Source: an uncultured bacterium (GTDB lineage: Bacteria; Verrucomicrobiota; Kiritimatiellia; CAIVKH01). From it: 64,000 nucleotides of DNA. This document shows, piece after piece, positions 16,989 to 43,510 of this stretch (position 1 is the first letter of the stretch; each line of letters begins with the position of its first letter). The position numbers and the translations under genes are program-made. The stretch lies in contig CALGMT010000001.1 of the NCBI GenBank assembly GCA_937958885.1, forward strand, positions 21,735 to 85,734. The letters run 5' to 3'. The notes below the pieces were generated by a model that did no database searches, had not been told where the DNA came from, and worked only from the letters and a program-made list of their open reading frames with translations.

Positions 16989-18503
16989 CTAGCCCTGCAG
17001 GGTCATCAGAAATTCGGCGTTGCTCTTCGTCTTTTTAAGCCGGTTGACGATGAGCTCCATCGCCTCGACCGGCTGGACGCCGTTCAGGGCCTTTCGCAAG
17101 ATCCATATTTTGGCGAGTTCGTCCGGATGCAGCAAGAGTTCTTCCTTTCGGGTTCCGGATTTTTCGACGTTGATCGCGGGGAAGATGCGCTTGTCCACGA
17201 GGTGCCGGTCGAGCGCCAGCTCCATGTTGCCGGTGCCTTTGAACTCCTCGAAGATGACCTCGTCCATTCGACTCCCGGTGTCGACGAGCGCCGTCGCGAC
17301 GATCGTCAGGCTGCCGCCGCCCTCGATGTTGCGCGCCGCGCCGAAAAAGCGCTTGGGTTTGTGCAGCGCGTTCGCGTCCACGCCGCCCGACAGGATCTTG
17401 CCGCTGTGCGGTTGGACGGTGTTGTAGGCGCGCGCGAGACGGGTGATGGAGTCGAGCAGGATCACGACGTCCTTCCCGCATTCGACCATCCGTTTCGCCA
17501 TTTCGATCACAATCTCGGCAACCTGAATGTGCCGCTCGGGGGGCTCGTCGAACGTGGAGCTCAAGACCTGTGCCTTGGTGTTTCGCTCCATGTCCGTCAC
17601 CTCTTCCGGACGCTCGTCAATCAGGAGGACGATCAAGTGCGCATCCGGATGATTGGCGGAGATGCTGTTCGCGATTTGCTGCAGCAGCACGGTCTTGCCC
17701 GTTCGCGGCGGCGCGACGATAAGCCCGCGCTGGCCGAAGCCGATCGGCGTGAGGATGTCCATTACACGCATCGAGATTTCGGTGGGTTTTGACTCCAGAT
17801 GGATCCGGCGATCCGGGAAAAGCGGCGTAAGGTTCTCGAACGGCACTTTCGAGCGCTGTTTCTCGGGCGCGTCGTTATTGATCCGGTCCACCTTGAACAG
17901 GGCAAAGAAGCGCTCCTTGTCCTTCGGGGGGCGGATTTCGCCCTCGACATAATCGCCCGTCCGCAGCGCGAACCGGCGAATTTGCGAGGGTGAAACGTAC
18001 AGATCTTCGGGGCACGGCAGGTAGTTGTTGAGCGGCGAGCGGAGAAATCCGAAGCCGTCCGGCAGGATTTCGAGAACGCCGCGACCGAACATCTGGCCGC
18101 CGAGCCGCGCATTGGCGCGCAAGATCTCGAAGATCAGTTCGTGCTTCCGGAGCGCGCCGAGCTCGACGAGTCCGTAGCTGTCGGCCACCGCTTTAATTTC
18201 GGGGACGGACATCATTTGAAGCTCAAACAGCTTGAGCAGGCGCGCCTCGCCTTGCGGACGCGGTTGCGGAGGCAATTCGCCGACGTTTCCGTCCGCATTC
18301 GGATTGGGCTCGGCCATGGCGCCGGGCGATTCCGCTACGTTGCCGTTCGCGGGCGGTTCGTCGAAATCCGCGCCGACCGGCGGCGCCCAGGATTCCTGAT
18401 GTACGCCCGGCCCGCGATCCCGATGTCCGCCATGGTGGCGGTGGTGGCGGCCCGGGCGCCGGCCGCGCCGGTGCCTGTTATTGTTCTGCTGTTCGTCCGG
18501 CAT
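16989..18503 (-). CDS. rho: Transcription termination factor Rho with N-terminal basic extension
   Basis: Rho_[24 protein letters not shown]...[17 protein letters not shown]-binding CSD region. Walker [19 protein letters not shown]. 504 aa, with about 86 extra N-terminal residues. Confidence 0.95.
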
Positions 18504-18504
18504 G

Positions 18505-19107
18505 TTACCTTCTCCTTATCTCCAACGAGCGCCAGTGGCGCGTCACCGACTTCTCCAATTCCTCCACCGATCCATTGTTCTCAATCGTCACATCTGCGCG
18601 CGCGGCCTTCTCCGTCAACGGCCATTGAGCCCGGCGCCGCGCTTCGATCTGCTCGGGTGTCCATCCCCTCGCCGCCAGACGCGCGGCAACAATTTCGTCG
18701 CGCGCGCTCACGCACCAAATCGAGTCCCATCCCTCCTCGAAACCGGCCTCGAAGAGGAGCGGAATCAACGCTGCGCACCCGCCGCGTTCCCGCCAAGCCG
18801 CGCGCCACGCATCGATCTCCGCGCGCACGCGGGGGTGAAGGATCGCCTCCAATCCCCTGCGCAGTGACTCGCTCTCGAACACGCGCGCCGCAATCGCCGC
18901 GCGGTTCAGCGCGCCGTCCGAACCCAACACGCCGACTCCGCACAAATTCGCCACCGCGTCGCGCACCTCCGACGATTCGCGAAGCAGGCGATGCACCACC
19001 GTGTCGCTGTCCAGCACAGACACACCGAGCTGCTCCAGGATGCGCCCCACCTCCGACTTCCCGCAGCCGACACCGCCCGTAACCGCCACCGCCGGATAGC
19101 GCGTCAC
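18505..19107 (-). CDS. coaE: Dephospho-CoA kinase
   Basis: Track ORF 18505..19695 is over-extended into the upstream gene. GTG at 19107 gives [35 protein letters not shown] (P-loop) and a 200-aa protein. That GTG overlaps the upstream TGA (GTGA). Confidence 0.8.
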
Positions 19108-21119
19108 TCCGGGCCTCCGCCACCTTTGAACCCGGACGACTCCAGCGCGCCGCACAGCGCGAGCAATTCCAGCGCGCGCGGCTGCCGCGGGAAATATTCC
19201 ATCGCCGCCACGCAGGCTCGTTCCGTGGCTCGCAAGTCTCCACGCTGAAAGGCTGCCTCCGCACGCGCGACCTCCCGCGCGGCCAGCGCCTCGTCCGCGC
19301 CCGTCACGACGCGGAACACGGCATATTTCACATTCCGATACAGCGGCACGAACCACGTCCGCTGGTCGGGGTCGAACTCGAACCCGCGCGCAGCGGCATC
19401 CGGCCGCGGATCCAATGCATTTACGAAATACCGCATCTGCAGCTCCGGGTGTTCGCGAGAGAACTCGCCAAAGGCGTGCACGTAGTACCGCGCGCCATGC
19501 GCGTCGGCCCAATCGCGAAACTCTTTTTCCGTTCCGTGAAACAACGCTTCCCCATACTCGCGCACCCGGTTTCGAATCGCCGCCGACTCGAACTTCGGGT
19601 GCAGGATGATGGCGCATTTGCCATAGGCGGCGATCGACCCGCTGACGCCGAAATTCGCCAAAACCGGGTCCGGCGCGGCGTGCCGCTCCAACCAAATCGT
19701 CAACTCATTCAATTCCCTGTAATATACGTTCACTCGGCCCCAACGCTCCGGCGTCCCCAAGGTATGCGCGCCTTCCACCATCAGTCCCGCTCCAAGCAAT
19801 AGGCCGGCCAGTGCGCGGATCCAGCGTCGATTCGAAGAAATCGTCGTCCAAGCCGCTCCAATGGCAATACAAGCGAACAGGGAAAGATAAACGTGGAAGC
19901 GGGCAAAGAACCAGAACGCGGCCATCGAGACACACGCGGCGAACAAACATTCGCCTGTTCTGGCGTCGGTTGATTCCTTCGATTCGCGCCATAATAGAAA
20001 AAGCGCCGGAAAAGTCAATGCCAATAGGGCGGGAAACAGCATCACCGCCAGGCGGAGGTCCGTCGAATTCAAGGCGGGCACCCAGAGAATTCGCTGATTG
20101 AAGGTTAATAACGCCGGGTCGTCGGGCTTGACGTTGAAATGGCGGATCTTCGCCCACATCAGCTCCGCGAAATGACCATAGGCCTCCGGCGGCGCTACAC
20201 GCGCATGGATGAGCGCACTCGCGCCGATCGCCGCCGCGAGAACGACCACCGCCGCGATCGCGCGGCGCGGCGCAGCGATGGCCGCCCACCTCCGCACCGG
20301 CAGCAGGCGCAACAAGGCCAAGCCGTGCGCCAGTCCCATCAGACCCGACGTCAGCCAGCCTTGCGCGGCATGATAGGGATTCCAGATGCCCACCGCGCAG
20401 AGCGCGGCGTACTCGAACCACCCCGCAACTCTTCGCTCGCGGCCGCGATACAGGTTCCACGCGCTGTACAGCAGACGCAACGCGATGTAATATTTCACCA
20501 AATCCCACGCGCACAGCGCGAGCGCCAGCGCGCCTGCTGCCACGGCCTCCGCAAGAAGTCGCCGCATGCGGCCGGCCATTTCCGGGGCGGCAACGGACAG
20601 CGCCCAGTGGGCGATCACAAATGGCATAGCGAAGTTTTCATGAGAAAGTTCCTGCCCCGTGGAGCGCATCACGCTCGACAGTGAAACCGCATAAAACGCC
20701 CCGCTCCACCACGCCGCGCTCGCGCTGCGCCGCCAACGATAAACACCCCACGCCAGGATCGGTATCCCAAGCGAAAACCATGCCGCCTCCAGCCAGCGCA
20801 GCCGGTCGAAGAACGGAACGGACGGGGGAAAGACGCGCGCCAGTCGCGCATACACGGCTTCAGATCCCGTGGTGTATGTCTTGCGGGTCTCGATGCCCTC
20901 GGGAAACTGGATCATCGGGTCGTGCACGGGGAGACGTCCCGTGTCGTGCACGATTTTCACACGCCGGTAATAAAGCGCGCTTTCGAGCGTGAACGGCAAG
21001 TTCGGCGCGATCCGGCGATACTGCGCCTCCACAATCGAGCGCCGCGCGCCCAGTCCAAGCATGAACAGGAACAATCCGCTCAGGGCGATCAGGAGGATGC
21101 GAATGGCAGTTCGGTTCAT
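19104..21119 (-). CDS. Large polytopic membrane protein, GT-C-fold glycosyltransferase-like, with soluble C-terminal TPR-like tail
   Basis: The track start 21152 is TTG. ATG 21119 gives MNRTAIRILLIALSGLFLFMLG. At least 10 hydrophobic segments, a first-loop acidic/aromatic motif FTLESALYYRRVK, and a ~200-aa C-terminal soluble region ending in helical repeats (AAREVARAEAAFQRGDLRATERACVAAMEYFPRQPRALELLA). Function inferred from architecture only. Confidence 0.45.
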   Translation of the reverse strand: MNRTAIRILLIALSGLFLFMLGLGARRSIVEAQYRRIAPNLPFTLESALYYRRVKIVHDTGRLPVHDPMIQFPEGIETRKTYTTGSEAVYARLARVFPPSVPFFDRLRWLEAAWFSLGIPILAWGVYRWRRSASAAWWSGAFYAVSLSSVMRSTGQELSHENFAMPFVIAHWALSVAAPEMAGRMRRLLAEAVAAGALALALCAWDLVKYYIALRLLYSAWNLYRGRERRVAGWFEYAALCAVGIWNPYHAAQGWLTSGLMGLAHGLALLRLLPVRRWAAIAAPRRAIAAVVVLAAAIGASALIHARVAPPEAYGHFAELMWAKIRHFNVKPDDPALLTFNQRILWVPALNSTDLRLAVMLFPALLALTFPALFLLWRESKESTDARTGECLFAACVSMAAFWFFARFHVYLSLFACIAIGAAWTTISSNRRWIRALAGLLLGAGLMVEGAHTLGTPERWGRVNVYYRELNELTIWLERHAAPDPVLANFGVSGSIAAYGKCAIILHPKFESAAIRNRVREYGEALFHGTEKEFRDWADAHGARYYVHAFGEFSREHPELQMRYFVNALDPRPDAAARGFEFDPDQRTWFVPLYRNVKYAVFRVVTGADEALAAREVARAEAAFQRGDLRATERACVAAMEYFPRQPRALELLALCGALESSGFKGGGGPE

Positions 21120-21202
21120 GCGCGCAACGAGATCGAGCCAGAGCGGAATCAACTGCAGACGAAGCGGATATCGCGAAGTGCGTTCACGGTGAATGCGGCG
21201 GA

Positions 21203-22078
21203 CTACAGGAGTTCCAACTGTTCAGGCACGGGGGGCGGCACGAGCGACGGCATGCCGAGGCGCGCGAAGAATGCGCGCAGGCGGGCGGGATCGGACTCGC
21301 GAATCCGGAGCGCCTCCAAGGGCGGAACGTCCGGCACCGCGCGATCGAGCGTCACCAGCGCGAGATTTCGGCGGATATCCTCCCGCGCAGCCTCAAGCGC
21401 CGCACGCAGTTTTTCGCCCGGCACTTGGTCAAGATTCGCCAAGAGCGCATCGAGCGTGCCAAATTGAGCGAGCAGGCGCGCGGCCGTTTTACCGCCGACG
21501 CCGGGCACGCCGGGGATATTGTCCACCGCATCACCCGTCAGCGCCAGCCATGCAGGAATAGACGATGGCGCGACGCCTGTTTTGGCTAGCACATCCGCCG
21601 GCGTCAATTCGGGGGCATCCTTGATCGGCGCCACCATTACGACGCGCTCGCCGACCAGTTGAAGAAGATCCTTGTCGTTAGTCGCGAGCCAAACCCGCCC
21701 GCCGATCTCCTCCGCGCGCGCGGCGAGCGTAGCCATCACGTCGTCCGCCTCCTGGCCCTCGATCAGAATGCGCGGGATGCCCTCCCCTCCGAGATACTCA
21801 TCGATCAGCGGCAATTGCCGAGCCAGCGCGTCGGGCATCGGCGCGCGCTGGGCTTTGTATGACGGAAGCTGCGCCATGCGCGAAGCCGGCAGGCCTCCGT
21901 CGGACACCACGGCGTGATGCGTGGGCTGAAATCGCTCGCGCAAGTGGCGGACCGCCTTGACAAAACCGAGCAGCGCGTTGGTTGGCGTGCCATCAGGCGC
22001 GGTCAGCGGCGGGATCGCGTGAAAAGCCCGATACGCCAACGCCATCGCGTCGATCAATAAAAGCTTCGGCTCGCTCAC
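21203..22078 (-). CDS. Stand-alone 5'-3' exonuclease / flap endonuclease (Pol I N-terminal domain homolog)
   Basis: LLLIDAMALAYRAFHA, LATNDKDLLQLV, LTGDAVDNIPGVPGVGGKTAARLL (H3TH). 291 aa with no polymerase domain. GTG start. Confidence 0.85.
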   Translation of the reverse strand: MSEPKLLLIDAMALAYRAFHAIPPLTAPDGTPTNALLGFVKAVRHLRERFQPTHHAVVSDGGLPASRMAQLPSYKAQRAPMPDALARQLPLIDEYLGGEGIPRILIEGQEADDVMATLAARAEEIGGRVWLATNDKDLLQLVGERVVMVAPIKDAPELTPADVLAKTGVAPSSIPAWLALTGDAVDNIPGVPGVGGKTAARLLAQFGTLDALLANLDQVPGEKLRAALEAAREDIRRNLALVTLDRAVPDVPPLEALRIRESDPARLRAFFARLGMPSLVPPPVPEQLELL

Positions 22079-22143
22079 ACGTTATCCCGCGCAAAAGGAT
22101 TGCTTTGCATTATCCGCTAAAACAGAAATAGGGATCGAGATCG

Positions 22144-22183
22144 GCCTCGGTCTCAGCCTCGGTCTCGCATCAGCCTCGGTCTC
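22144..22183. repeat. Three copies of the 11-mer GCCTCGGTCTC in an intergenic region
   Basis: Copies at 22144-22154, 22156-22166 and 22173-22183, read directly. Lies between the secretin stop (22363) and the exonuclease start (22078). Confidence 0.6.
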
Positions 22184-22362
22184 GATTGGAGTAGTATCAC
22201 AATAGCCGGCTACGCCTGACTACGCGCGCCGGACACGATTCCGCGTTTTGCGCAGAGCAGCCTCCTCGCCCGCGCTCGCCTCACACAACGGGAACTCCAT
22301 CGCTCCGCCGAACGAACGCGGCCACATTTGGCCGATCGGCGGCCGATCCCGCCGGGGCCCGG

Positions 22363-25300
22363 CTACGGAGCCGCAGCGACGCCGGGCGCTTCAACATCCA
22401 GTTCGCCGCGGTTGATCGGCTTGCCGGCCGGATCGACGAGACGCGCGGTGACGAAGATCAGCAGGTTCTTCTTCTGGCTGTATTCGCCTTCGCTTCGGAA
22501 AAGTCGGCCCAAGAGCGGAATATCGCCGAGGAATGGGATCTTATCCTTCACGCGCACGAGGTCCTCGCGGATCAAACCGCCCATCACCACCGTCTGACCG
22601 TCCCAGATCACGATGCTGGTGGTCACATTACGGCTGGAAAACACGGGCTGCGGGATATTGAATACAAAGGTCTGGTCGCCCGAAAAGAGCCCGGTGATCG
22701 GATCGGTGCGCGGAATGCTGACGGTTGAGCCGTACTGAATCCAATCCACCAGCTCCGACACTTCGGGCACCATCACAAGGTCGATCGTGTAGCCGTCGGG
22801 GCCGACGGTCGGCGTCACATTAAGGATGACACCGGTTTCACGCTTCTCAAAGTTGCCGGGCGTGACGACCGGCGGAGTGGTGACATTGCCGCTCTCGTTG
22901 AATTGGGGCTGCGTTGTTTCGAACTCAGTCGGATAGATGATTTCGCGCACCACCTGAATCTGCGCGTTCACGCCGCTGCGCGTGGTCACACGCGGGGCGG
23001 AAAGCAGATCGGTGCCGCCGTGCTGGGAGAGCGCCTGGATCACGAGGGAAAGTTCGGGATTCGTGAGCACGCTCGCAAAGGTCGCGATGCCGCCGAGCGG
23101 ACTGATGCCCGCGCCGAACTGGCCGCGCGTCGCGGGCTCGATCGAACCGGTGTTGCTGTTCCGACTAAAGAAGCGCAACCCTTTCGTCACACCGTTTGGA
23201 TCGGAATTCATTTGAATCCGCTCGCTGGCCGCGGCCCCGAACGGACCCTTGCGCTGAGCGATTTCAAAATTATCGGTGAGCAGCCACTGGAATCCGAGTT
23301 CTTCGAGGTCGTTTTGCGAAATCTCCACAAACCGCGCCTCAATTTCGACCTGATTCGGGATCACATTCAGCCGCGCGAGAATGCGCTCGAACACCTCGAG
23401 ATTTTCCGGTGTGTTCGCCACAATCAACTGGCTGATGGTCGGATTATAGGTGATGGAAGTGCCTTGCGGGAAAGGCACGCCGGTCCGCTCGAAGAAGTCC
23501 TTCACGTCGCTCTTCTTGAAAGTCGTGCTCTTTGCGCCGAGTTCGACGAAGCCGCCCGCACCGACCTGTGACTCTTCCTTCTCCACAATAACGTCAAGGA
23601 TCGAGGGTTGGACCGGATACATGCGCGTGATAACACGGCCTGTCGGCATATTCTCCGGCGTGATCATCACCACGTTCTCTTCAAGACGATACCGGAGGCG
23701 GGCGACCTCGGTGATGTATTTGATCGCATCGAGCAGTGAAATCCGACGCAGGGTCAGCGTGATGGTGGGAACACCGGCGGACGCGGCGGGCGCGGCGAAG
23801 TCCTGCGCTGGAGCCGGCGCGGCAAAATCATCGAAGCCGCCGCCGAAATCGTCAAAGCCGCCGCCCGCGAACGGGTCTGCAGCCGGCTGGGCCGGCGCGG
23901 CAGCAGGCGCCGACGCGCCCATCACGTTTGGATTCAGGATGATGTTGACCCCGATGCCGTCCTTGTCCTGTTTCACGCTTTCGTCGCGCAGGTAATTGAT
24001 GACGTCGTTGATGTTGGCCTGGCGAAAATCAATGATGGGAATAATGATGCTTTCCATTTTGGCCTGGAGCTTTTGCGCCGAGGTCTGTGTTTCGACAGCA
24101 CCGCGATTGACGACAGCATCCGGAAGGACTGTCTCCGTGCGGACCGGCGGGTTCCACCCGTCGCGCACCTGCTGCATCATCTCCGCGACGGTGGACTCGC
24201 GCTCTTTGGTGCGAATGCGATAGCGAATTTCATCGATCCGGCGCAGGTACCGCATTGCGTCGGTGTTGTACTCGTCTTGTATAAGGACGCGCTCGAAGAG
24301 GGCTTCCGCGGCGTTATAGTCGCGAATATCGAAATATTGGCGGCCTTCCTTCATCAGCTCATCGATGGTCTTCTTGCGTTCGACAACTTCTGGGCGGCTC
24401 TTGATCGGCACGGGTTTGGCCCGAAGCTCAGCCTCGCGCGCTTCCGCGCGCTCGATCTTTCGCTCCAGCGCACTGAGCTGGCGCACGTCCACACCAGCGG
24501 CCTTCGCCGCGTTCAGCGCTTCGCGCGCCGTCTTGATATCCGTGCGATCATAGGCGCGCTCGGCCTTCCGGGTATGCGCTTGGCCGAGAGCGACGCCGAC
24601 TTCCGCAAGGAGGGCGCGATTCGCATCGCGCACCGGAATCTTTGCCTGCGCCTCCTGGAGGTCCTTGATCGCGTCCTCGTATCGGCCCTCGCGCAGCGCG
24701 GCAATTCCGCGCTCGGCGCTCATGCGCCCCTCGATTTCGCGCGATTGGCGGCGAATCTCTTCTTGCTGCGCAATCAGCGCCGGATCGATGCCGACGGCGT
24801 TTGGATCCTGGGCCGGCGCGCCGGGCGCCGCCGCAACAGCGTCGGGCAGCCTGTCGGATTCCACATCGGCCTCCACGACAGGAACCGGTTCCGGTTCATC
24901 CCCGCCAAATCCGAACAGATCCTCCATGGCTGCAGCGGGCGCGGGCTCGATCGCGGGCGCAGCGGACGGCGCAGCAAGGATGTCGTCGAACATGAAGTCA
25001 TCCGCCGGCGCGGGTTCCGCGACCGGAGCAGGCTCCGGCATGAGTTCGGCGGCAGGCGCCGTAAGTTGGGCCTCGATGGCGAACGCGTCCGCGGGACCAT
25101 CCACTGCCGGCCACTCTGCTGCGAGGGCATCCTCGATCTCCGCAGCGGGAGCCGCAGCGTCCGCCGGCATGTCCAACGCCCACGGGTCTTCGGCGGCCTC
25201 CATCGGCGCCGGCTCCTCGTCGGATGGCACGTCGAGTTTCGATTCAACCCCTGCGGCAATCGCCGTCGGCGACGGCATAATCAAGTCTTGTAGCAGCGCA

Positions 25301-25383
25301 TCGAAGTCCTGCGCTCGCGCGACGACAAGCGAGGCGATGACAAGTGCAGTCAATCCGATAACAGGGCCCCTGATGACGCTCAT
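22363..25383 (-). CDS. Secretin (type II/III secretion system / PilQ family) with long N-terminal extension
   Basis: Track ORF trimmed to ATG 25383 (MSVIRGPVIGLTALVIASLVVARA signal peptide). C-terminal secretin domain LLSAPRVTTRSGVNAQIQVVREIIYPTEFE...WDGQTVVMGGLIREDLVRVKDKIPFLGDIPLLGRLFRSEGEYSQKKNLLIFVTARLV. Confidence 0.85.
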   Translation of the reverse strand: MSVIRGPVIGLTALVIASLVVARAQDFDALLQDLIMPSPTAIAAGVESKLDVPSDEEPAPMEAAEDPWALDMPADAAAPAAEIEDALAAEWPAVDGPADAFAIEAQLTAPAAELMPEPAPVAEPAPADDFMFDDILAAPSAAPAIEPAPAAAMEDLFGFGGDEPEPVPVVEADVESDRLPDAVAAAPGAPAQDPNAVGIDPALIAQQEEIRRQSREIEGRMSAERGIAALREGRYEDAIKDLQEAQAKIPVRDANRALLAEVGVALGQAHTRKAERAYDRTDIKTAREALNAAKAAGVDVRQLSALERKIERAEAREAELRAKPVPIKSRPEVVERKKTIDELMKEGRQYFDIRDYNAAEALFERVLIQDEYNTDAMRYLRRIDEIRYRIRTKERESTVAEMMQQVRDGWNPPVRTETVLPDAVVNRGAVETQTSAQKLQAKMESIIIPIIDFRQANINDVINYLRDESVKQDKDGIGVNIILNPNVMGASAPAAAPAQPAADPFAGGGFDDFGGGFDDFAAPAPAQDFAAPAASAGVPTITLTLRRISLLDAIKYITEVARLRYRLEENVVMITPENMPTGRVITRMYPVQPSILDVIVEKEESQVGAGGFVELGAKSTTFKKSDVKDFFERTGVPFPQGTSITYNPTISQLIVANTPENLEVFERILARLNVIPNQVEIEARFVEISQNDLEELGFQWLLTDNFEIAQRKGPFGAAASERIQMNSDPNGVTKGLRFFSRNSNTGSIEPATRGQFGAGISPLGGIATFASVLTNPELSLVIQALSQHGGTDLLSAPRVTTRSGVNAQIQVVREIIYPTEFETTQPQFNESGNVTTPPVVTPGNFEKRETGVILNVTPTVGPDGYTIDLVMVPEVSELVDWIQYGSTVSIPRTDPITGLFSGDQTFVFNIPQPVFSSRNVTTSIVIWDGQTVVMGGLIREDLVRVKDKIPFLGDIPLLGRLFRSEGEYSQKKNLLIFVTARLVDPAGKPINRGELDVEAPGVAAAP

Positions 25384-25464
25384 GAAGACTCTCCTTAGAA
25401 AATTGCCAATAAAGCGATCACGCCACTTCACCCTCACCCGATCCCGCACGGCGCTTTCCCGCAA

Positions 25465-26508
25465 TCATAACCCCGGCGCCGCCCCCGAAGACGGAGCTTC
25501 AAGTGCGCCCGCTCCGCCCAACAACCGCGCGCGCTCTTCAGGTGAGATCAATCCAACCGTCGAAACTTTATCGTCTGCCGCATCGTGTATTACGATACGA
25601 TCCTCGCGAATGTCAACGACTTTGTACCGAACATCCTTGAGCGAGATGGTGTCGTTGAGACGCACGCGATACCGGCTGCCGTCGAGAAGCAATACGAGGA
25701 ACGCGGTGCGCGCTTCGTCCGTAATGGTGCGCCCGCGGACCAGGCGAAACTTCTGCGCGCCCCGCTGAAGGACCAACGTCGGTCCGCCCGGCGCGGCGGC
25801 GTCGTGGGAAACCACCTTGAAGCCCTCAACCTCATCGCCGAGCGAAACAAAATAGGTGCGATCCCCGGTGCGGGTGTTGAGCTGATACCGCTCGCCGGAG
25901 ATGCCGACATAAATAAAGCGGAACGGATCCGTCACCGTGCGGACGAGGCGCAGCTTGGCGGCCGGCGGCGGGAAACTGGCCGGATCGAGCGGATCCGTGC
26001 CGGCAAGATATTCCTCCAGATTGGTGTACCCATCGCCGTCTAAATCGCCGTGCGCGTCGGTCGGATCGAAGGGGTTGAGGCCCCACATGATTTCGACTTT
26101 GTCGGGAATGCCGTCGCCATCGCTGTCGGGCTCGTAATCGACGGACGGCTGCTCCTTGCCGGAAAAAGGATCGCGGGTGGCGGCGAAAGGGATCGGCGCG
26201 CCGTCGGGAATGCTGGCCACACGCAATTCGCCGACAAGAAAACGACGGCCCTCCGGTTGCGCCTGAAACGGCGCGGCAAGGCGCGCGAGCAATTGAGTCA
26301 CGGTTGTCACATCCAGCGGCTGAGCTGGACGCCCCGCCATGCCGATCTCACGCCCCATGCGCTGGTCGAAGCTCTTTCGCTGTGCGCCAATCCGCAGCAC
26401 CAGGAGCATTGCGGAGGCCAACAGCAGGACCAGCGAGATGACAAGCGCAAGCTTGTCGTAGTTCTGCTGCAGCCAGGAGCCGCCGGGTCGTTGCGCGCTA
26501 CCCTTCAC
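25465..26508 (-). CDS. Bitopic protein with thrombospondin-type-3-like Ca-binding repeats (occupies the PilP position)
   Basis: N-terminal TM LALVISLVLLLASAMLLVL. DSDGDGIPDKVEIMWGLNPFDPTDAHGDLDGDGYTNLEEYLAGTDPLDP (DxDxDG repeats). Beta-rich C-terminus. GTG start overlapping the upstream stop. Confidence 0.55.
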   Translation of the reverse strand: MKGSAQRPGGSWLQQNYDKLALVISLVLLLASAMLLVLRIGAQRKSFDQRMGREIGMAGRPAQPLDVTTVTQLLARLAAPFQAQPEGRRFLVGELRVASIPDGAPIPFAATRDPFSGKEQPSVDYEPDSDGDGIPDKVEIMWGLNPFDPTDAHGDLDGDGYTNLEEYLAGTDPLDPASFPPPAAKLRLVRTVTDPFRFIYVGISGERYQLNTRTGDRTYFVSLGDEVEGFKVVSHDAAAPGGPTLVLQRGAQKFRLVRGRTITDEARTAFLVLLLDGSRYRVRLNDTISLKDVRYKVVDIREDRIVIHDAADDKVSTVGLISPEERARLLGGAGALEAPSSGAAPGL

Positions 26509-27455
26509 GGGGCGTCCTCCTTCAAATCCTGCACGAATCGATAGACATCGACCGTTACCGTCGCCTGGATCAGCTCGCGGCCCGCCACCACGCGTTCCTC
26601 GTGCGTCGGATATCGAGCGGCCGCCTGAAGTCCAGCTTGTTCGCCGCCGCCGACCGGATTCACAGGCTGCGCTTTACCGATTTTATCCGCGATCGTATTG
26701 GCCAACTGGATGTCGACCACCGCGGCGATAATCGAGGACCGTGCGAGCAAATTGAGCGCCTCCCATACATTGGCATCGCGGGCTTGAAAGGTCACCGTGA
26801 TGCGCTCCGTCTCGTAGAGCGGGTTTTCGGCGGGCATCGGAATCTGCGTAGGCGTCGGCGCCTGCGCCTCGGCCCCGCGCCGGCGCGTCATCACCGGCTC
26901 ATCCGCAACGGCCTGCGCGGCGACCTCAAAGGTCTGCCGTTCGAGATCGACCAGCGAGTGGACACGGGCTTGGAAGAGCAGCCGGCAAATGGCCTCCATC
27001 GATTTGAGTTGGATAACCAATCTCGGGATCGCATCGCGCGCGGGCAACTCACCCGCGGCATAACGGGCCATGCCCAGCGAGGTCCGTTCGGGCAACAGCA
27101 CGCCGCTCTCCGACGCGCGCTGGGTCAGTCGCGCGATCGTCCGTTCAAGCATGGGCGCAAATTCGGCCGCCTCGATGGACTCCGGTTCGATACGACCTTT
27201 TTGCAGCATCGACTGCACCTGGCCGGCCAGCTCGCGCAGGGCCGATAGATTTTCTTCCAGTTGACGGATGTTTGTCGGCGAAGGAAACGGATCGCGCCGC
27301 GAAAGGGTCTCCAGCCGGCGCATCGAATTTTCCAGCTCCTGGTTCAGACGCGCATACTCTCCGCGGGCGCGCAGCAGGAAAATCAGCGCGACAATCAGCA
27401 ACACCAGGGCCACGCCCCCGCCGACCAGCAAGACCATGTGTTTGCGCCAGTTCAT
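26505..27455 (-). CDS. Bitopic coiled-coil protein in the PilO position (Amuc_1100-like by recollection)
   Basis: Trimmed to ATG 27455 (MNWRKHMVLLVGGGVALVLLIVALIFLL = single TM). A coiled-coil segment (EYARLNQELENSMRRLETL...IRQLEENLSALRELAGQVQ) is followed by an alpha/beta C-terminal domain. 316 aa. ATGA overlap with pilMN. Confidence 0.5.
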   Translation of the reverse strand: MNWRKHMVLLVGGGVALVLLIVALIFLLRARGEYARLNQELENSMRRLETLSRRDPFPSPTNIRQLEENLSALRELAGQVQSMLQKGRIEPESIEAAEFAPMLERTIARLTQRASESGVLLPERTSLGMARYAAGELPARDAIPRLVIQLKSMEAICRLLFQARVHSLVDLERQTFEVAAQAVADEPVMTRRRGAEAQAPTPTQIPMPAENPLYETERITVTFQARDANVWEALNLLARSSIIAAVVDIQLANTIADKIGKAQPVNPVGGGEQAGLQAAARYPTHEERVVAGRELIQATVTVDVYRFVQDLKEDAP

Positions 27456-29128
27456 GGCAGGAACGGCTCCTTGAGGAAAACGCGAATCTTGAACTGCCGC
27501 ACGTACTGGTCCGCCGGCGGAGTCGGCAACCACGTGATCTCGGTGGACGTCGTGAACGGCGCCGCTTCGCGCAGGCGATCGCGGAAGTCGCGGATGGGCG
27601 TCGCCGAGGTAATCTTGTCGAGGTACCCCGCGCCATCGATATCAAGCGCAATCAGTGCGCCGACCGGCGCGTCGGAGATCGGCGCCCGGCCCGCCGCGGG
27701 ATCGGGCGCCGCCTGCCGCACGGGCGCCACCTGTAGGAGGAACAGATCTTCCGGCAACGCCTCGTGCAGCGCGCTCAACAGCTCGAGCAATCGCACGCGC
27801 TTGGTGGCAACCGCATCCACGTCCTTGATGCGCTGCTGCAAGGTGGCGATTTTGGTTTCCGCATCCCGCAGCGGTCCAGCATAGGCATCCAGTTCCGCTA
27901 CGCGGCTGTTCACCCGGGCCAGGTGATCGCGCGCCAATCCGCTCATTCGGACGAAATACAAGCCCCACACCATCAGCACCAGCACCAGCGCCACCGCAGC
28001 CCCGATCAGCATGGGTTGCTTGCGGCGAAATATTTTTTCCTGAACGACCTTCGGCGGAAGAAGATTGATCTCGATGGGACAGGAATGGACCTTGCGCAGC
28101 GCCAGCCCGACCAATTGCGGCAGCTCGTGCGCATGGCGGCCGATTTCCTCCGCATCGATCTCCGGACTGACCGGCACGTTCACGAAGGGATTGAGGTAAT
28201 CGACGTCGACCTTCAGCTTGTCTTTTAAGAAGACATCCGTGTACGGGATAACCGAGGTGCCGCCGGCCAACAGCACGAGCGAAGGCGGCTTGCCGTTCTG
28301 CTGGCTCCGATAGAACTTGATCGAGCGGTCGATCTCGGCGTGCATGCGCGTCATCACGTTGCGCACGATTTTCGACACCTTGTCCGCCACTTCGCTCTTC
28401 GGCTCCTCATAGGCCCCGCCGAACGCGACGAACGCGTGCGCGCGCTTCATCTCCTCCGCATCCTCGAAGGACAGCTCGAACTCGCGCTGGATCTGCTGCG
28501 TGATCGCGTTGCCGGCGACCGGCACGCTGCGGATGAAGACGCGCCCCTCCTCCATGAAAATCAGATCGGTCGAGCGCGCGCCGATATCGATCACAAGCAC
28601 GCATCCCTGCGCGTCGCTGTAATTGAAACGAACCGCGTTGTAGAGCGCCATCGGCGCGACATCCACCAGGTCAGTCTGCAGCCCCGCCTGTTCCACCGCG
28701 TCGGTGAGCTGGACGATAATGTCGGCCTTGATCGCGGCCAGCATGACATCCAGATCCCCCTCGCCGCGCCCGATCAACTGGTAATCCCAGACCACTTCAT
28801 GGATCGGGAACGGAACGTTCTGCTGCGCCTCGTACAGGATGATTTGATACACCTTCTCCTTGTCCACCGGCGGCAGCTTGACGAAGCGCGAGAAGACGGA
28901 CTGGCCGGAGACGCTCAACAGGACCGGACCGGGCTTGATGGCCCGCTCCTGCATGATCTCCTTGATGGTGGTGACGATTTGCGGAATGCGATCGCCGTCG
29001 CTCTGCGGATCGACCAGCAGCGGTGCAACGCCGAACTTCACGAGTTCCAACCCGCCGGACTTCAGCGTGGTGAATTCGCCGAGCTTGATGCTGCTGGCGC
29101 CGATATCGAGAGCGAGTATGCGCTGCAT
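27452..29128 (-). CDS. pilM: PilM-PilN fusion (type IV pilus assembly actin-like ATPase-fold protein fused to a bitopic PilN-like domain)
   Basis: MQRILALDIGASSIKLGEF...VLVIDIGARSTDLIF...LLAGGTSVIP (PilM/FtsA-like). Then IEINLLPPKVVQEKIFRRKQPMLIGAAVALVLVLMVWGLYFV (PilN INLLP motif plus TM), a coiled coil and a C-terminal domain. 558 aa. Confidence 0.8.
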   Translation of the reverse strand: MQRILALDIGASSIKLGEFTTLKSGGLELVKFGVAPLLVDPQSDGDRIPQIVTTIKEIMQERAIKPGPVLLSVSGQSVFSRFVKLPPVDKEKVYQIILYEAQQNVPFPIHEVVWDYQLIGRGEGDLDVMLAAIKADIIVQLTDAVEQAGLQTDLVDVAPMALYNAVRFNYSDAQGCVLVIDIGARSTDLIFMEEGRVFIRSVPVAGNAITQQIQREFELSFEDAEEMKRAHAFVAFGGAYEEPKSEVADKVSKIVRNVMTRMHAEIDRSIKFYRSQQNGKPPSLVLLAGGTSVIPYTDVFLKDKLKVDVDYLNPFVNVPVSPEIDAEEIGRHAHELPQLVGLALRKVHSCPIEINLLPPKVVQEKIFRRKQPMLIGAAVALVLVLMVWGLYFVRMSGLARDHLARVNSRVAELDAYAGPLRDAETKIATLQQRIKDVDAVATKRVRLLELLSALHEALPEDLFLLQVAPVRQAAPDPAAGRAPISDAPVGALIALDIDGAGYLDKITSATPIRDFRDRLREAAPFTTSTEITWLPTPPADQYVRQFKIRVFLKEPFLP

Positions 29129-29153
29129 GTGAATAACGCGATTCCGGGGTCGC

Positions 29154-29765
29154 TTATCGGCTCGGCTTGATGGCCTCGTAGTCGTCGAAATTGATCATGG
29201 CAAACGGCGTCTGCATGCGGTTGAGCACGTATCCGTCCTGCGGGGCGAACGACTCCCACCAGCGCTGCTGCGCGGAGCCTTGCGGCAGCCCATCCCGCGC
29301 CACGATGGCGCCGCCCACGCGGACCTCGACCGCGACGCGCTCCACGTCCCCAAAGCGGTCCACTGTGCTCGGATGCAGGTAGATGTCGCTGCGGCGTCGG
29401 CCGCGCCCGATATTAATATAGGTCACTTCGCCCTTGAATAGCGTGCGCGGGTTGCGGCCCGGTTCGGGACGCTTCGATAGCGTCAGCACATAAAAGGTGA
29501 ACGTCGCCTCGTCGATCCATTCGGGCGCCACCTCGTAGTCCACAATGATCTGATACCACTGGCGTGTCCGCGCGGCGAACTGACTCTTTTTGATTTGGTA
29601 TTCCGGCGTATCAACTTTCGTACCCGTAATCCTACGAATAATTAGCGGGACCGGCGACGCGCCCGGCGCAGGCGGCGCGGCCGGCTGCGCCCATGCGGAG
29701 GTCGCGGGTATGCTGAGCACAACAGCCAACAGGCTAATGGCTGCGCGAGACGCGATGGACTGCAT
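29154..29765 (-). CDS. Small secreted protein of unknown function, first gene of the pilus-like operon
   Basis: Track ORF 29154..29903 trimmed to ATG 29765 (MQSIASRAAISLLAVVLSIPATSAWAQP = signal peptide with AWA-Q cleavage-like site). 203 aa with no recognisable motif. Confidence 0.5.
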   Translation of the reverse strand: MQSIASRAAISLLAVVLSIPATSAWAQPAAPPAPGASPVPLIIRRITGTKVDTPEYQIKKSQFAARTRQWYQIIVDYEVAPEWIDEATFTFYVLTLSKRPEPGRNPRTLFKGEVTYINIGRGRRRSDIYLHPSTVDRFGDVERVAVEVRVGGAIVARDGLPQGSAQQRWWESFAPQDGYVLNRMQTPFAMINFDDYEAIKPSR

Positions 29766-29943
29766 GGGCAACCTCCGGGGCGCTGATCTCTGGTGTGAAG
29801 AACTCATGAACAAACGATGCGTGTGCGCGTGAGTATATGACGGCCCGCGAAATGAGGTCAACAGCGCGATTGGGGGTAAATGCGATTTTGAGTCGCTTGG
29901 CATTTTGCGCTTCGCATGCTATTTCCCGCTCGCGATTCGGCTC

Positions 29944-31668
29944 ATGCAACAACTCATCCACGATATCGGTATCTGCGTCGCCGCCGCATGGGCGCTGGGA
30001 CTTCTCGCAAATGCGCTGCGCCAACCGCCGCTGCTCGCGTATCTGCTCGGCGGGTTCATCGTCGGGCCGGCCGGTCTCAACTGGGTCGGCGACCCGCGCG
30101 CGATCGGACTGGTGTCGGAGCTCGGATTGCTGTTTCTCCTGTTCATGATCGGGCTGGAGATCGACCTGCGCAAAATCGCGTCCGCGGGACGCGCGATCAC
30201 CGTGACCGCCGCTTCGCAGATCCTCGGCGGCCTCCTGCTGGGCATCGCGGTGTTCTGGGCGCTCGGTTTTGCGCTGGGCCATGACGGGCGCTGGGACGCC
30301 CTCTACCTCGCGGTCGGCGTCGCCTGCAGTTGCACCGTCGTCGTCGTCAAATTGCTCTACGATCGGCGCGAGCTCGACACGCTGGCCGGACGCATCACGC
30401 TGGGCGTGGTCGTGCTGCAGGATTTGTTCTCGATTCTCTTCCTCGCCATCCAGCCGAATCTGAACAACCTGAAGGCCGCCGTGCTGCTGCTGTCCCTGCT
30501 GCGCGTCGCGGCGCTCGTCGCCACGGCGCTCGCGTTCGCCCGCTACGTCCTGCCGCTGGTCTTCCGCCGAATCGCCCGCCTGCCGGAGCTGATGCTGATC
30601 GGCGCGCTCGCGTGGTGTTTTCTGATCGGGGAACTGGCGGCGCAGCTCGCGCTTTCGCGCGCGATGGGCGCGCTGGTCGCGGGCATCGCGCTGTCGACGT
30701 TCCCCTATGCGCTGGACGTGGGCGCAAAGGTCACCAGCCTGCGCGATTTCTTCGTCACGCTGTTCTTCCTCGGCCTTGGGCTCGCGATTCCGATGCCGAC
30801 CGGAAGCGTGGTCGGCTGGGCCGCCGCCGTGGCGGCCTTCACGGTTCTCAGCCGCTTCGCCACGACATTCACTCCTCTTTATTTGATGCGCATGGGCCTG
30901 CGAATCTCCTTTTTGCCGGCGCTCAACCTCTCTCAAATCAGCGAATTCTCTCTCGTGATCCTCGCGCTCGGCGTGCATGCCGGCCACATTGGCGAAGAAA
31001 CCAACGCGGCGGTCTCGCTCGCGTTCGTCGCGCTCGCCGTGCTCTCGTCCGTCGCCATCTCCAACAGCGACCCCCTCGTCCGGCGCATGATGCGGGGCGC
31101 GAAACGCCTCGGTCTGCGCGACCTGGATGCGGAACAAGCGCCACCCCCCGCGCCCGCCGCGGCGCACGGCGGGCGTATCCTGATAATCGGATTCTTCCGC
31201 GAGGCGAGTTCGCTGCTGGAGGAATTACAGCGACACGCGCCTCATCTGGTGCCGCGCATCACGGTGGTCGATTTCAACCCTGTGGTCTTTGAGGAGCTGA
31301 ACCGACGCGGAATCCATATCGTCTATGGCGATGTGAGCCAACGCGATACCCTGCTCAAGGCCGGCGCCGCCGACGCGGCGCTGTTCATCTGCACGGTTCC
31401 GGAGAGCCTGCTCCGCGGGATCACCAACGAGAAGCTCGTCCGCCAGTTGCGCGACCTCAATCCCCGCGCCCGCATCCTCATCACCACGGAACTGCTCGCG
31501 GAGGTGCCGCGACTTCGCGCCGCCGGCGCGGATTACGTCTATCTCCCCCGCATCGAGGAAGCGCGCGACCTTGCCGTCGCGGTCCGCGCCGCGCTTGACG
31601 GGATGCTCGACCAGAAACAGGCCTCCGTCGATCGCGAGATAAACGGTCGCCGCGAAGTGCTGCCGTGA
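29944..31668 (+). CDS. Kef-type cation:proton antiporter (CPA2) with C-terminal RCK/TrkA-N domain
   Basis: ATG 29944 (MQQLIHDIGICVAAAWALGLLANALRQPPLLAYLLGGFIVGPAG). 10-12 TM segments. C-terminal Rossmann-like RILIIGFFREASSLLEEL...VVDFNP. Confidence 0.85.
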   Translation: MQQLIHDIGICVAAAWALGLLANALRQPPLLAYLLGGFIVGPAGLNWVGDPRAIGLVSELGLLFLLFMIGLEIDLRKIASAGRAITVTAASQILGGLLLGIAVFWALGFALGHDGRWDALYLAVGVACSCTVVVVKLLYDRRELDTLAGRITLGVVVLQDLFSILFLAIQPNLNNLKAAVLLLSLLRVAALVATALAFARYVLPLVFRRIARLPELMLIGALAWCFLIGELAAQLALSRAMGALVAGIALSTFPYALDVGAKVTSLRDFFVTLFFLGLGLAIPMPTGSVVGWAAAVAAFTVLSRFATTFTPLYLMRMGLRISFLPALNLSQISEFSLVILALGVHAGHIGEETNAAVSLAFVALAVLSSVAISNSDPLVRRMMRGAKRLGLRDLDAEQAPPPAPAAAHGGRILIIGFFREASSLLEELQRHAPHLVPRITVVDFNPVVFEELNRRGIHIVYGDVSQRDTLLKAGAADAALFICTVPESLLRGITNEKLVRQLRDLNPRARILITTELLAEVPRLRAAGADYVYLPRIEEARDLAVAVRAALDGMLDQKQASVDREINGRREVLP

Positions 31669-34455: not shown

Positions 34456-34776
34456 CTAAAACCGCACGCCCAGCGCGAGGGCAGCGGTGTGAATCACGCG
34501 CCCATCCGGGCGCGATTCGGGATCGAGCACCAACCCGACGGCCGTATCCGCGTCGGGCGAACCGAAAGGCAATAACGCGCGCGATTGAAATGCGTCGGCC
34601 TTGTCTTCCTTCTCCACCTGCCACGCGACCCAGCCCAGCACGCCGACCACCGTCAGCAGAAGCCCAATGGTCGCCACCGCATTGACGCCGGACTCCGCGC
34701 GTGCAGTCCGTGCCGGAGCGAACAAAAAAATGCCGAAAGCCAGCAGCGTTGCCGTTGCGCGATTAAATTGCTTCAC
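34456..34776 (-). CDS. Small exported protein, last gene of the Mla-like operon (C-terminal Phe, OMP-like ending)
   Basis: GTG start sharing one base with the mlaD TAG. Signal-like N-terminus ATLLAFGIFLFAPARTARA, one further hydrophobic stretch, ends ...ALALGVRF. 106 aa. Confidence 0.4.
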   Translation of the reverse strand: MKQFNRATATLLAFGIFLFAPARTARAESGVNAVATIGLLLTVVGVLGWVAWQVEKEDKADAFQSRALLPFGSPDADTAVGLVLDPESRPDGRVIHTAALALGVRF

Positions 34777-35645
34777 TAGAAAGCCCCGAAGAAAATACTC
34801 GAAAATGAAACGACAGGCGTCGTTTCGCGCAAATCGTCCACCGCCGCGCGGATTTCGCCCATCAGGCCGTCTACCTGTTGATACAGGCCATCGTCCTTGA
34901 CCAACCGGCCGAGCGTTCCCTCGCCGCGGTTGATGGTTTCGGCCGTCTCCCTTAACGCGCCGACTGTGCTTTCAAGATCGCGGTATAGGGAATCGTCGGA
35001 CGACAGCAGACGCCCGAGCGTGCCCTCCCCCCTCTCCAGCCGGGCGCTGACGGCGAGCAGATTGGTATAAAGCGAATCGTCGGACAGCAGCTTTCCGACC
35101 GTGCCCTCCCCATCCTTCAACCGGGCGGTCAGGATCTTGAGATTCTCCATCGTCTCTTCCAGGTTGCCCAACACGCCCCCGCGCTCAAGCGACTCGCGCA
35201 CGCGGCGCACGCCGTCGGTCAGCTCCGCGATAAAGTCCGCAGGCCCGCGCCCCGATATCGTTGCGTTATCCGGCAGCAGGGGTTTGTCCGGCGAACCCTC
35301 GCGGATTTCGACAAACTTACCGCCGAGCACCGAGGACGGCACCACCTGAATGGAATAGTCCTCGCGCAGCTCCAGCGGATATTCGAGCACGAGCGTCGCA
35401 TACACGCCGTCGCGCCGAACCGACAGACTCTTCACGCGCCCGACATCGACGCCCTTCACAAAGACCTTGTCGCCTTTGATCAACCCCGTCACCTGATCGA
35501 ACACAACCGTGACGCTGTGGCTCTTGGCAAAGAGATTTTCCTGGCTCAGGATAATGGTGAAAAACCCCAGCGTCAGCAGGATCATCATCAGGAAGAACCC
35601 GACGACCACTTCCAGGGACATTTGCTGCATTCGACTTCGCTTCAT
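34776..35645 (-). CDS. mlaD: MCE/MlaD family lipid-transport substrate-binding protein
   Basis: ATG 35645 overlaps the mlaF TGA (ATGA). N-terminal TM VVVGFFLMMILLTLGFFTIIL. MCE core VTVVFDQVTGLIKGDKVFVKGVDVGRVKSL. C-terminal helical repeats. Confidence 0.85.
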   Translation of the reverse strand: MKRSRMQQMSLEVVVGFFLMMILLTLGFFTIILSQENLFAKSHSVTVVFDQVTGLIKGDKVFVKGVDVGRVKSLSVRRDGVYATLVLEYPLELREDYSIQVVPSSVLGGKFVEIREGSPDKPLLPDNATISGRGPADFIAELTDGVRRVRESLERGGVLGNLEETMENLKILTARLKDGEGTVGKLLSDDSLYTNLLAVSARLERGEGTLGRLLSSDDSLYRDLESTVGALRETAETINRGEGTLGRLVKDDGLYQQVDGLMGEIRAAVDDLRETTPVVSFSSIFFGAF

Positions 35646-36406: not shown

Positions 36407-37146
36407 CAGCGATAGAAAAGTCGGGTGAGCATGTAGCCTAATACGAGGATCACGAGGAACGAAATGATGACCGTGCGGCGCGTCGCCTGCCCCACGCCCA
36501 CCGCGCCCTCGCTCGTCGAGAAGCCCTGATGGCACGCCGTCGTCGCGATCACAACGCCGAACACGAAAGCCTTGAGCAAGCCAACGTAGAGATCCTTGTT
36601 CTGCGCATAGAGCTGCGCGTTGTCGAAATAGGCTTGGAATGAAACCTGCAACTGCGTTGCGCCGATCACCGCCCCCCCCACAATGCCCAGGACGTTCGTG
36701 TACACCGTGAGCATCGGCATCATGATCGCCAACGCAAGCAGGCGCGGCAGGACGAGAAAACGCACCGGATTGATCGACATGATCTCCAGCGCGGAAACTT
36801 CTTCCGACACCACCATCGTGCCGATCTGCGCCGCGATCGCGGATCCCACGCTCGCCGCAATAATCAGCGCCGTCATGAAAGGCCCCATCTCGCGCAACAT
36901 CACCACCGTCACCGCGGTACCGATGTTCTGCTGCAGACCGAATCGGCGCAGCTCCAGACCGGTTTGCAGCGCCAGGATCATCCCGGTGAATGCCGCGACC
37001 ACGGTGATGACGCCCAGCGACTTAATGCCCGTCAGGTAAAGTTGGTAAAACAACTCATGCCGGCTTCGCTTGTCCAGCGCCCAAGGGATAAACAGCACCG
37101 CCTCTGCCAGCATCAACATGGCTTGCCCCACGCCGCGCAGATTCAT
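36406..37146 (-). CDS. mlaE: ABC transporter permease, MlaE-like
   Basis: 246 aa. YQLYLTGIKSLGVITVVAAFTGMILALQ...REMGPFMTALIIAASVGSAIAAQIGTM matches the MlaE/YrbE permease pattern. Confidence 0.9.
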   Translation of the reverse strand: MNLRGVGQAMLMLAEAVLFIPWALDKRSRHELFYQLYLTGIKSLGVITVVAAFTGMILALQTGLELRRFGLQQNIGTAVTVVMLREMGPFMTALIIAASVGSAIAAQIGTMVVSEEVSALEIMSINPVRFLVLPRLLALAIMMPMLTVYTNVLGIVGGAVIGATQLQVSFQAYFDNAQLYAQNKDLYVGLLKAFVFGVVIATTACHQGFSTSEGAVGVGQATRRTVIISFLVILVLGYMLTRLFYR

Positions 37147-43492: not shown

Positions 43493-43510
43493 GGCGCGCT
43501 CTTTATCGCC

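Follow-up and report, generated by a model that had tools for sequence, protein, structure and literature searches.

The Amuc_1098-1102 cluster of Akkermansia was described in 2016-2017 as a set of abundant envelope proteins, possibly forming pili-like structures. It is also called mucin utilization locus 2 (MUL2), and secondary citations report that it is important for mucin acquisition in Akkermansia. The Akkermansia literature describes Amuc_1098 as a secretin that is abundant in the outer membrane and whose N-domain is a BamD-like TPR domain, and Amuc_1100 is among the most studied probiotic effector proteins. A 2026 study (PMC13174399) reports synteny of MUL2 across Akkermansiaceae and other Verrucomicrobiales, less of it in Chthoniobacterales and none in Methylacidiphilales. 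The study names dephospho-CoA kinase and rho among the neighbours of MUL2 in Akkermansiaceae; it describes amuc_1099 and amuc_1100 as uncharacterised, likens amuc_1102 to an archaeal type IV pilin, and proposes that MUL2 acts in particle attachment and glycan uptake. Here, a five-gene operon (g1 to g5) was analyzed in a 64,000-nucleotide stretch, hereafter called the window, of contig CALGMT010000001.1 from an uncultured Kiritimatiellia bacterium. The locus is a deeply diverged Kiritimatiellia version of this already catalogued and curated machine. Literature searches returned nothing on this locus or on relevant pili in Kiritimatiellia, and the available parts of the 2026 study do not mention this lineage.

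The operon and its five products

The operon runs on the minus strand from 29765 to 22363, and its five co-directional genes have the lengths and the ATGA and GTGA overlaps given in the original prediction. The leading gene, g1 (29154-29765), encodes 203 amino acids from an ATG start preceded by GGAGG. It is followed by g2 (27452-29128, 558 amino acids), g3 (26505-27455, 316 amino acids, with an ATGA overlap with g2) and g4 (25465-26508, 347 amino acids, with a GTG start in a GTGA overlap with g3). The last gene, g5 (22363-25383, 1006 amino acids), begins 81 nucleotides past the g4 stop codon at an ATG preceded by AGGAG. All five protein sequences are identical to independent gene calls on an 88,278-bp NCBI/ENA contig. 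On a Logan contig, g1 is found at 98.5% identity together with g2, g3 and a portion of g4; the Logan contigs retrieved were short and fell within the window. G+C content at third codon positions was 0.71-0.82 across the five open frames, in a window of 63% G+C. A single hydrophobic segment was observed in each of g2 (residues 370-399), g3 (residues 4-33) and g4 (residues 17-43), and signal-peptide-like N-termini were observed on g1 and g5. The gene models are therefore supported by the independent gene calls, by the third-position composition and by the hydrophobic segments and signal-peptide-like N-termini. A promoter-like site, TTGACC-18-TATACT, with 10 of 12 consensus matches is located at 29832-29861 on the minus strand, about 67 nucleotides 5' of the g1 start codon; it is weak evidence, because three such sites occur in the region where 1.7 would be expected by chance. 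No convincing terminator was found 3' of g5, and the 284-nucleotide spacer between g5 and the following exonuclease gene contains no terminator-like hairpin. Tandem repeats are present in this spacer at 22141-22184, with a 12-nucleotide unit, GCCTCGGTCTCA, repeated 1.9 times and a 6-nucleotide unit, TCGGCC, repeated 7.5 times.

All five products match, in order, the NCBIfam models for Amuc_1102, Amuc_1101, Amuc_1100, Amuc_1099 and Amuc_1098, which bears out the earlier suggestion that the arrangement is comparable to Akkermansia Amuc_1098-1102. The first product, g1, matches the model Amuc_1102_rel with an E-value of 5e-14 and 52.3 bits, against a cutoff of 55. It also matches the sequence of the Amuc_1102 crystal structure (PDB 7DSZ) in a phmmer search (7.1e-8, residues 78-199). 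A precomputed Pfam annotation, PF28178 (Amuc_1102), is attached to the g1 protein and its relatives, and one Verrucomicrobiota homologue is named by NCBI as an "Amuc_1102 family pilus-like protein". The N-terminus of g1, MQSIASRAAISLLAVVLSIPATSAWA/QP, resembles a Sec signal peptide (...ATSAWA/QP). Among 121 members of the Amuc_1102 family (120 homologues and g1), an AxA-type Sec cleavage site was found in 111 and a prepilin motif in none. The possibility that g1 is a classical type IV pilin was rejected, insofar as the class III prepilin signal is missing across the family. Based upon these matches, g1 is a predicted Sec-exported protein of the Amuc_1102 family and a homologue of MUL2A.

The second product, g2, matches the NCBIfam model Amuc_1101_fam with an E-value of 1e-161 (539.8 bits, cutoff 650) and exceeds the cutoff of the curated pilM model TIGR01175 (170.9 bits, cutoff 133). 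Pfam PilM_2 (PF11104) matches residues 7-346 at 1.3e-43, covering profile positions 2-339 of 340. These residues, encoded at 28091-29110 on the minus strand, correspond to the PilM actin-fold domain, which is predicted to be cytoplasmic. The remainder of the protein, residues 349-558 (27455-28084, minus strand), is PilN-like. In order, it contains the INLLP motif (residues 354-358, positions 28055-28069), a transmembrane helix at about residues 370-399, a coiled coil and a periplasmic alpha/beta domain. A profile of the PilN part, built from the window and ten related loci, matches Myxococcus xanthus PilN (3JC8 chain N) at 6.8e-8, and hhalign against the periplasmic domain of Acinetobacter baumannii PilN gave 92.8% probability with an E-value of 3.8e-7. 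The PilN features are thus fused to the PilM domain and not encoded separately. The 558-residue protein had originally been proposed to be a PilM-PilN fusion, and the Pfam, NCBIfam, profile and hhalign matches all agree with this. By its sequence, g2 is a PilM-PilN fusion of the Amuc_1101 family and a homologue of MUL2B.

Resemblance of the 316-residue product of g3 to Amuc_1100 had also been suggested, and was corroborated by NCBIfam, by a family profile and by Foldseek. The match of g3 to Amuc_1100_fam has an E-value of 6.9e-30 (104.6 bits, cutoff 180). When 32 homologues of g3 were combined into a profile, it matched the structures of Amuc_1100 (6KNY, 6LAD and 6LAF) almost from end to end, at about 3e-9, and the precomputed Pfam annotation PF28028 (Amuc_1100) is attached to the g3 protein and its relatives. 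The structure of g3 was predicted with AlphaFold2, with a mean predicted local distance difference test (pLDDT) score of 79. In a Foldseek search of the PDB with this model, Amuc_1100 was the top match, with an E-value of 1e-10 and template-modelling scores, TM(target), of 0.70-0.79. It was directly followed by Pseudomonas aeruginosa PilO (2RJZ, 4.5e-4) and M. xanthus PilO (3JC8_O, 1.9e-3). The profile and Foldseek matches both give g3 the Amuc_1100 fold, a helical stalk with a ferredoxin-like core. No sequence-profile signal was found between g3 and A. baumannii PilO, so that the likeness to PilO is at the level of fold only. The predicted structure thus places g3 as a probable bitopic member of the Amuc_1100 family with a PilO-like fold.

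The product of g4 scores above the curated cutoff of its model, Amuc_1099_fam (2.5e-21, 76.6 bits, cutoff 50). The DxDxDG repeats pointed out earlier in this 347-residue protein correspond to two Pfam TSP3_bac repeats (7.2e-9), which are predicted to bind calcium and are encoded at 25981-26127 on the minus strand (residues 128-176). Two small beta domains follow (residues 186-320, 25549-25953, minus strand). The AlphaFold2 model (pLDDT 85.7) consists of a transmembrane helix, the two TSP3 calcium loops and the two small beta domains. Residues 92-126 form a degenerate zinc-ribbon-like stretch that has lost all four cysteines in the window's clade and has kept its scaffold. Divergent members of the Amuc_1099 family carry a four-cysteine zinc-ribbon-like motif, RVSCVKCGRPIPY...CPFC..QP (CxxC...CPFC), and Pfam UPF0547 matches 13 of 45 family members, with zinc-ribbon families matching fewer.

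A relationship of g4 to PilP was sought in several ways. Pfam PilP matched none of the 45 family members, and profile searches of the PDB with the full-length or the C-terminal family profile returned no significant match. With both profiles, hhalign against A. baumannii PilP gave a probability of 0.2%. The best PilP match in Foldseek (2Y4Y) had an E-value of 0.08 and a TM(target) of 0.40-0.43, which is not significant. PilP is a lipoprotein with a beta-sandwich domain, whereas g4 has a transmembrane anchor and no lipobox. The assignment of g4 as a PilP homologue was therefore rejected, since the tests of sequence, profile and fold were all non-significant. A profile of the C-terminal domain matched 823 clusters at 50% identity (E-value of 1e-3 or lower). 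Among the best 150 of these, the full-length entries were all about 350 amino acids long with the domain at the same position. Because the architecture is uniform, this search provided no bridge to another family. Based on sequence, g4 is best described as a putative bitopic protein of the Amuc_1099 family. The two middle proteins had been proposed merely to occupy the PilO and PilP positions; this stands for g4, which shows no significant link to PilP, and is too cautious for g3, which does have a PilO-like fold. It had further been proposed that g1, g3 and g4 lack a recognizable family. That is correct for the 2025 release of Pfam-A, in which g1 and g3 have no significant match and g4 matches TSP3 only, but both g1 and g3 are recognized by NCBIfam and by two Pfam families of more recent date, PF28178 and PF28028.

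The 1006-residue product of g5 is a secretin, as predicted. Pfam Secretin (PF00263) matches at 1.4e-37, together with TPR matches, and Amuc_1098_fam matches residues 201-991 at 4.8e-157 (524.3 bits, cutoff 750). Following the signal peptide is a low-complexity linker of about 170 residues rich in A, P, D and E (residues ~30-200, 24784-25296, minus strand), which falls outside the Amuc_1098 model. The linker is succeeded by a TPR/BamD-like region (residues ~209-280, 24544-24759, minus strand), the periplasmic N-domains and the secretin domain (residues 784-984, 22432-23034, minus strand). No AMIN family was detected in g5.

Relatives and genomic surroundings

A scan of one genome per species identified 16 loci encoding relatives of g2. 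Half of these are from Kiritimatiellia-type metagenome-assembled genomes (MAGs), with g2 identities of 59-82%, and seven are from Chthoniobacterales or Verrucomicrobiota MAGs, with identities of about 40-48%. The remaining locus, from an Anaerolineales MAG, shows a weak partial match of 28% identity over part of the PilM domain. Locus L017 has a weak partial PilM-like match only. All five genes are present in the same order in at least 10 of the 16 loci; the six others are interrupted by a contig end and show the part that fits. The five-gene set is inherited as one unit. Kiritimatiellia and Chthoniobacterales are placed by the NCBI taxonomy in different phyla of the Planctomycetes-Verrucomicrobia-Chlamydiae (PVC) group. 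In Kiritimatiellia MAGs, NCBI already labels homologues of g3 as "Amuc_1100 family pilus-like protein" and homologues of g4 as "Amuc_1099 family pilus-like system protein". In view of the published MUL2 locus, the curated NCBIfam and Pfam models and these NCBI names, the system cannot be called unrecognized.

The genes 3' of the secretin are also conserved. In six Kiritimatiellia-type loci the secretin gene is followed by genes for an exonuclease and a Dpy19-like membrane protein and by coaE and rho. The exonuclease gene is absent from two other Kiritimatiellia-type loci (L005 and L006). The Dpy19-like gene is kept 3' of the module in eight Kiritimatiellia-type loci and is absent in Chthoniobacterales, where coaE and rho directly follow the secretin. 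Across loci L002-L013, coaE and rho were found 3' of the secretin wherever the sequence extends far enough. The 5' neighbours are variable housekeeping genes, for example those for IMP dehydrogenase, a helicase, methyltransferases and an epimerase. None of the 16 loci has a prepilin or secretion-ATPase motif within 10 kb.

In the window, the module is flanked on the secretin side by a 5'-3' exonuclease gene (21203-22078, minus strand) and on the g1 side by a gene for an Na_H_Exchanger and TrkA_N antiporter (29905-31668), consistent with the 5' nuclease and Kef antiporter originally named there. The region at 16989-22078, on the same strand after the module, encodes the exonuclease, a Dpy19-like multi-pass membrane protein (19104-21152, minus strand, 682 amino acids; weak Pfam Dpy19 match, 5e-7), coaE and rho. 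About 45 other open reading frames of the window were scanned with Pfam and NCBIfam, and no T2SSE ATPase, T2SSF platform protein or A24 peptidase was found. Six-frame motif scans of the 64-kb window detected neither a prepilin motif nor a Walker A motif of the T2SSE type. These family and motif scans agree with the earlier statement that the window holds no pilin, prepilin peptidase, PilB/PilT ATPase or PilC gene.

Several other features of the window were recorded. After rho, a gene at 15215-16963 (minus strand) encodes a VWA-domain protein of 582 amino acids with a hydrophobic N-terminal stretch, and a similar gene also follows rho in locus L006. This protein was considered as a PilY1-like adhesin and rejected, as there is no link to pili; its sole other match was to a sortase-target family, below threshold (115 bits, cutoff 552). 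On the other side of the module, Mla/Mce-like lipid-transport genes (MlaD-like and MlaE) are located at 34776-38639 beside unannotated neighbours, and such genes also occur 5' of the pilus-like module in loci L002 (3126-7358), L004 and L009. A large cluster for sugar-nucleotide and glycan biosynthesis spans approximately 43500-60500. It includes genes for two C-methyltransferases, an aldo-keto reductase, a zinc-dependent alcohol dehydrogenase, a split transketolase, epimerases, a cytidylyltransferase-kinase and a PMT-like membrane glycosyltransferase. A tRNA gene at 43421-43492 on the plus strand was the sole Rfam match in the window.

Proposed assembly and competing explanations

Taken together, the family matches, folds and synteny indicate, with a probability of roughly 0.8 for identity and architecture, that the operon encodes the envelope-spanning scaffold of a type-IV-pilus-like machine of the Amuc_1098-1102 (MUL2) type. 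In such a machine, the cytoplasmic PilM actin-fold domain of g2 would be joined covalently to PilN through the INLLP motif, the transmembrane helix, the coiled coil and the alpha/beta domain. The PilN part would pair in the periplasm with g3, the PilO-fold homologue of Amuc_1100. We infer that g4 may occupy the PilP slot and connect the platform in the inner membrane with the secretin's periplasmic domains. With its own TPR/BamD-like N-terminal module, g5 would form the channel through the outer membrane, and g1 could serve as a family-specific periplasmic or surface component that is beta-rich and not a classical pilin. PilM would link this scaffold with motor and platform proteins from other loci. 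The ATPase or ATPases, the platform protein, the prepilin peptidase and any true pilins would be expected at other sites in the genome, which is the usual situation in type IVa systems. If Akkermansia MUL2 is taken as a guide, the most likely task of the machine would be attachment to complex glycans, or their capture and uptake. A glycan-acquisition function in this organism is a tentative proposal, to which we give slightly less than even odds.

Several observations weigh against this interpretation. Neither the window nor the 10-kb flanks of the related loci yielded a gene for a motor, a platform or a pilin. Structure-based identity between g3 and Amuc_1100 is just 13-16%. Four of the five NCBIfam scores fall under the curated equivalog cutoff, with only Amuc_1099_fam passing, and the products of g1 to g5 are therefore diverged homologues and not NCBI-grade equivalogs. 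No relationship of g4 to PilP or GspC was detectable, and the orientation of g4 is not settled by charge. The charge flanking the g4 transmembrane helix in the window's clade is +1 before and +4 after. The mean for the Amuc_1099 family, in the region of g4 residues 1-58, is +1.56 before and +0.80 after, with a more positive C-terminal flank in 13 of 45 members. The secretin is about equally close to GspD and PilQ. The glycan function would be an extrapolation from Akkermansia, where it is known through secondary citations.

The position of the secretin between these families bears on the first of the alternatives, in which the operon would encode one half of an apparatus like the type II secretion system (T2SS), the half that comprises the outer-membrane part and the assembly platform, with functional equivalents of GspL, GspM, GspC and GspD. 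The role of such an apparatus would be to export proteins that degrade or bind glycans and not to build a pilus, and the mucin-uptake defect in Akkermansia would be a secondary consequence of the loss of secretion. The secretin is slightly nearer to GspD than to PilQ, both in NCBIfam (165 bits for TIGR02517 and 144 bits for TIGR02515) and in the PDB (1.3e-21 and 4.9e-19). From textbook knowledge of the T2SS, the covalent PilM-PilN fusion has the architecture of GspL. Moreover, g4 is a bitopic inner-membrane protein like GspC and not a lipoprotein like PilP, and there is no pilin in the locus, the Amuc_1102 family being Sec-exported. However, the score for GspD does not reach half the cutoff of 351 bits (the PilQ cutoff is 284), no Pfam or NCBIfam family for GspL, GspM or GspC matches g2, g3 or g4, and g2 passes the curated PilM model. 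The C-terminal half of g2 matches PilN specifically, and the best fold matches of g3 after Amuc_1100 are to PilO and not to GspM. We therefore consider a secretion system of this kind unlikely. A competence machine for DNA uptake, of the HofMNOPQ/ComMNOPQ kind, was also considered, as the secretin has a weak match to the DNA-uptake porin HofQ (6.2e-24, 84.5 bits) and it is textbook knowledge that pilMNOPQ homologues mediate DNA uptake in several bacteria. The HofQ score is far under its cutoff of 554 bits and weaker than those for GspD, PilQ and MshL, and family scans of the window's open reading frames revealed no competence genes nearby. Insofar as secondary citations give mucin acquisition as the Akkermansia phenotype, this also argues against competence, which appears very improbable.

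The original prediction had favoured an orphan conduit. According to this explanation, the locus would encode a self-contained device of the PVC lineage without a PilB/PilT motor or pilins, in which the Amuc_1102-type protein would act as a non-canonical fibre or gate. The lack of prepilin and T2SSE motifs in the window and within 10 kb of the 16 loci is in keeping with this, as are the variable housekeeping genes 5' of the module, the missing prepilin signal in all 121 Amuc_1102-family proteins and the inheritance of the five genes as one unit. The argument is nevertheless one from absence of evidence within 10-64 kb, and in motor-dependent type IVa pili the pilMNOPQ operon usually stands by itself, at a distance from the pilin and ATPase genes. 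Orphan status is for this reason not meaningful, and its description as an anomaly was not borne out. In A. baumannii, the pilMNOPQ genes have ponA on one side and aroK-aroB on the other, and neither a pilin gene nor an ATPase gene lies within 5 kb of them. PilM in characterized type IVa systems is a cytoplasmic adaptor that engages motor and platform proteins. The strict conservation of PilM here therefore argues for a cytoplasmic partner and against a self-contained conduit. Akkermansia itself is reported to have other colonization-relevant pili proteins at distant loci (Amuc_1523-24, Amuc_1583, Amuc_0394 and Amuc_0745). On balance, a self-contained conduit is highly unlikely. The A. baumannii record consulted for this layout, CP040042.1 (L020), is filed as a 538,712-bp "plasmid" and carries ponA, pilMNOPQ and aroK-aroB; three others of this type are 3.7-4.1 Mb in size, and such "plasmids" are therefore probably mislabelled chromosomes.

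A broader extension of the MUL2-type scaffold was also considered. MUL2-type machines might be a branch of their own within the type IV filament superfamily, one that is ancestral to Verrucomicrobiota and Kiritimatiellota. Its members would combine a PilMN-PilO scaffold with Amuc_1099, a connector other than PilP, and with a self-piloting TPR-secretin, and the Sec-exported, non-prepilin protein Amuc_1102 would be the subunit that they handle. The device might work inward to capture and import glycans, as a PVC counterpart of Sus-type "selfish" polysaccharide uptake. If so, the secretin would serve as an entry route, in the way that PilQ admits DNA in competence pili. As a combined proposal, this must be regarded as doubtful.

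Comparison with known systems

For the window alone, the result is mainly one of correct annotation and not of discovery, and the greater interest of the locus is as evidence for an ancient PVC envelope machine. The Amuc_1098-1102 module, and with it an architecture of the PilM/PilN/PilO type, is also present in Kiritimatiellia-type bacteria. The presence of the module in the same coaE-rho neighbourhood in Kiritimatiellia points to an old, vertically inherited envelope machine and not to a gut-specific host-interaction device. Free-living polysaccharide degraders could serve as models for the cargo and power source of the machine and for the roles of Amuc_1099 and Amuc_1102.

The T2SS proteins GspC, GspL, GspM and GspD resemble the present set in the fusion of an actin-like domain, a transmembrane segment and a periplasmic domain, as in GspL, in bitopic partners similar to GspM and GspC, and in the secretin. 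The sequence affinities of the Kiritimatiellia proteins are instead to PilM, PilN and PilO. Compared with PilMNOPQ of Pseudomonas, Acinetobacter and Myxococcus, the operon shares the PilM domain, the PilN features, a PilO-like fold, the secretin and the gene order and, like the A. baumannii operon, is separated from genes for pilins and motor proteins. It differs in having a single protein for PilM and PilN, a transmembrane-anchored TSP3-repeat protein without detectable homology to PilP in the PilP slot, TPR repeats in the secretin and, at the head of the operon, an additional gene for a Sec-exported protein of the Amuc_1102 type.

The closest correspondence is with MUL2 of Akkermansia. Relative to MUL2, the host lineage is Kiritimatiellia-type and belongs to a separate NCBI phylum, the divergence is deep (as seen in the four scores under cutoff and in the low identity of g3), g5 contains the additional A/P/D/E-rich linker, and the exonuclease and Dpy19-like genes are placed between the secretin and coaE. 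Despite these differences, the two loci encode the same five families in the same order and orientation. The Amuc_1100 fold of g3 and the Amuc_1102 sequence of g1 are both matched to solved structures. The secretin bears a TPR/BamD-like N-terminal region, as in Amuc_1098, and coaE and rho adjoin the locus, as is reported for Akkermansiaceae.

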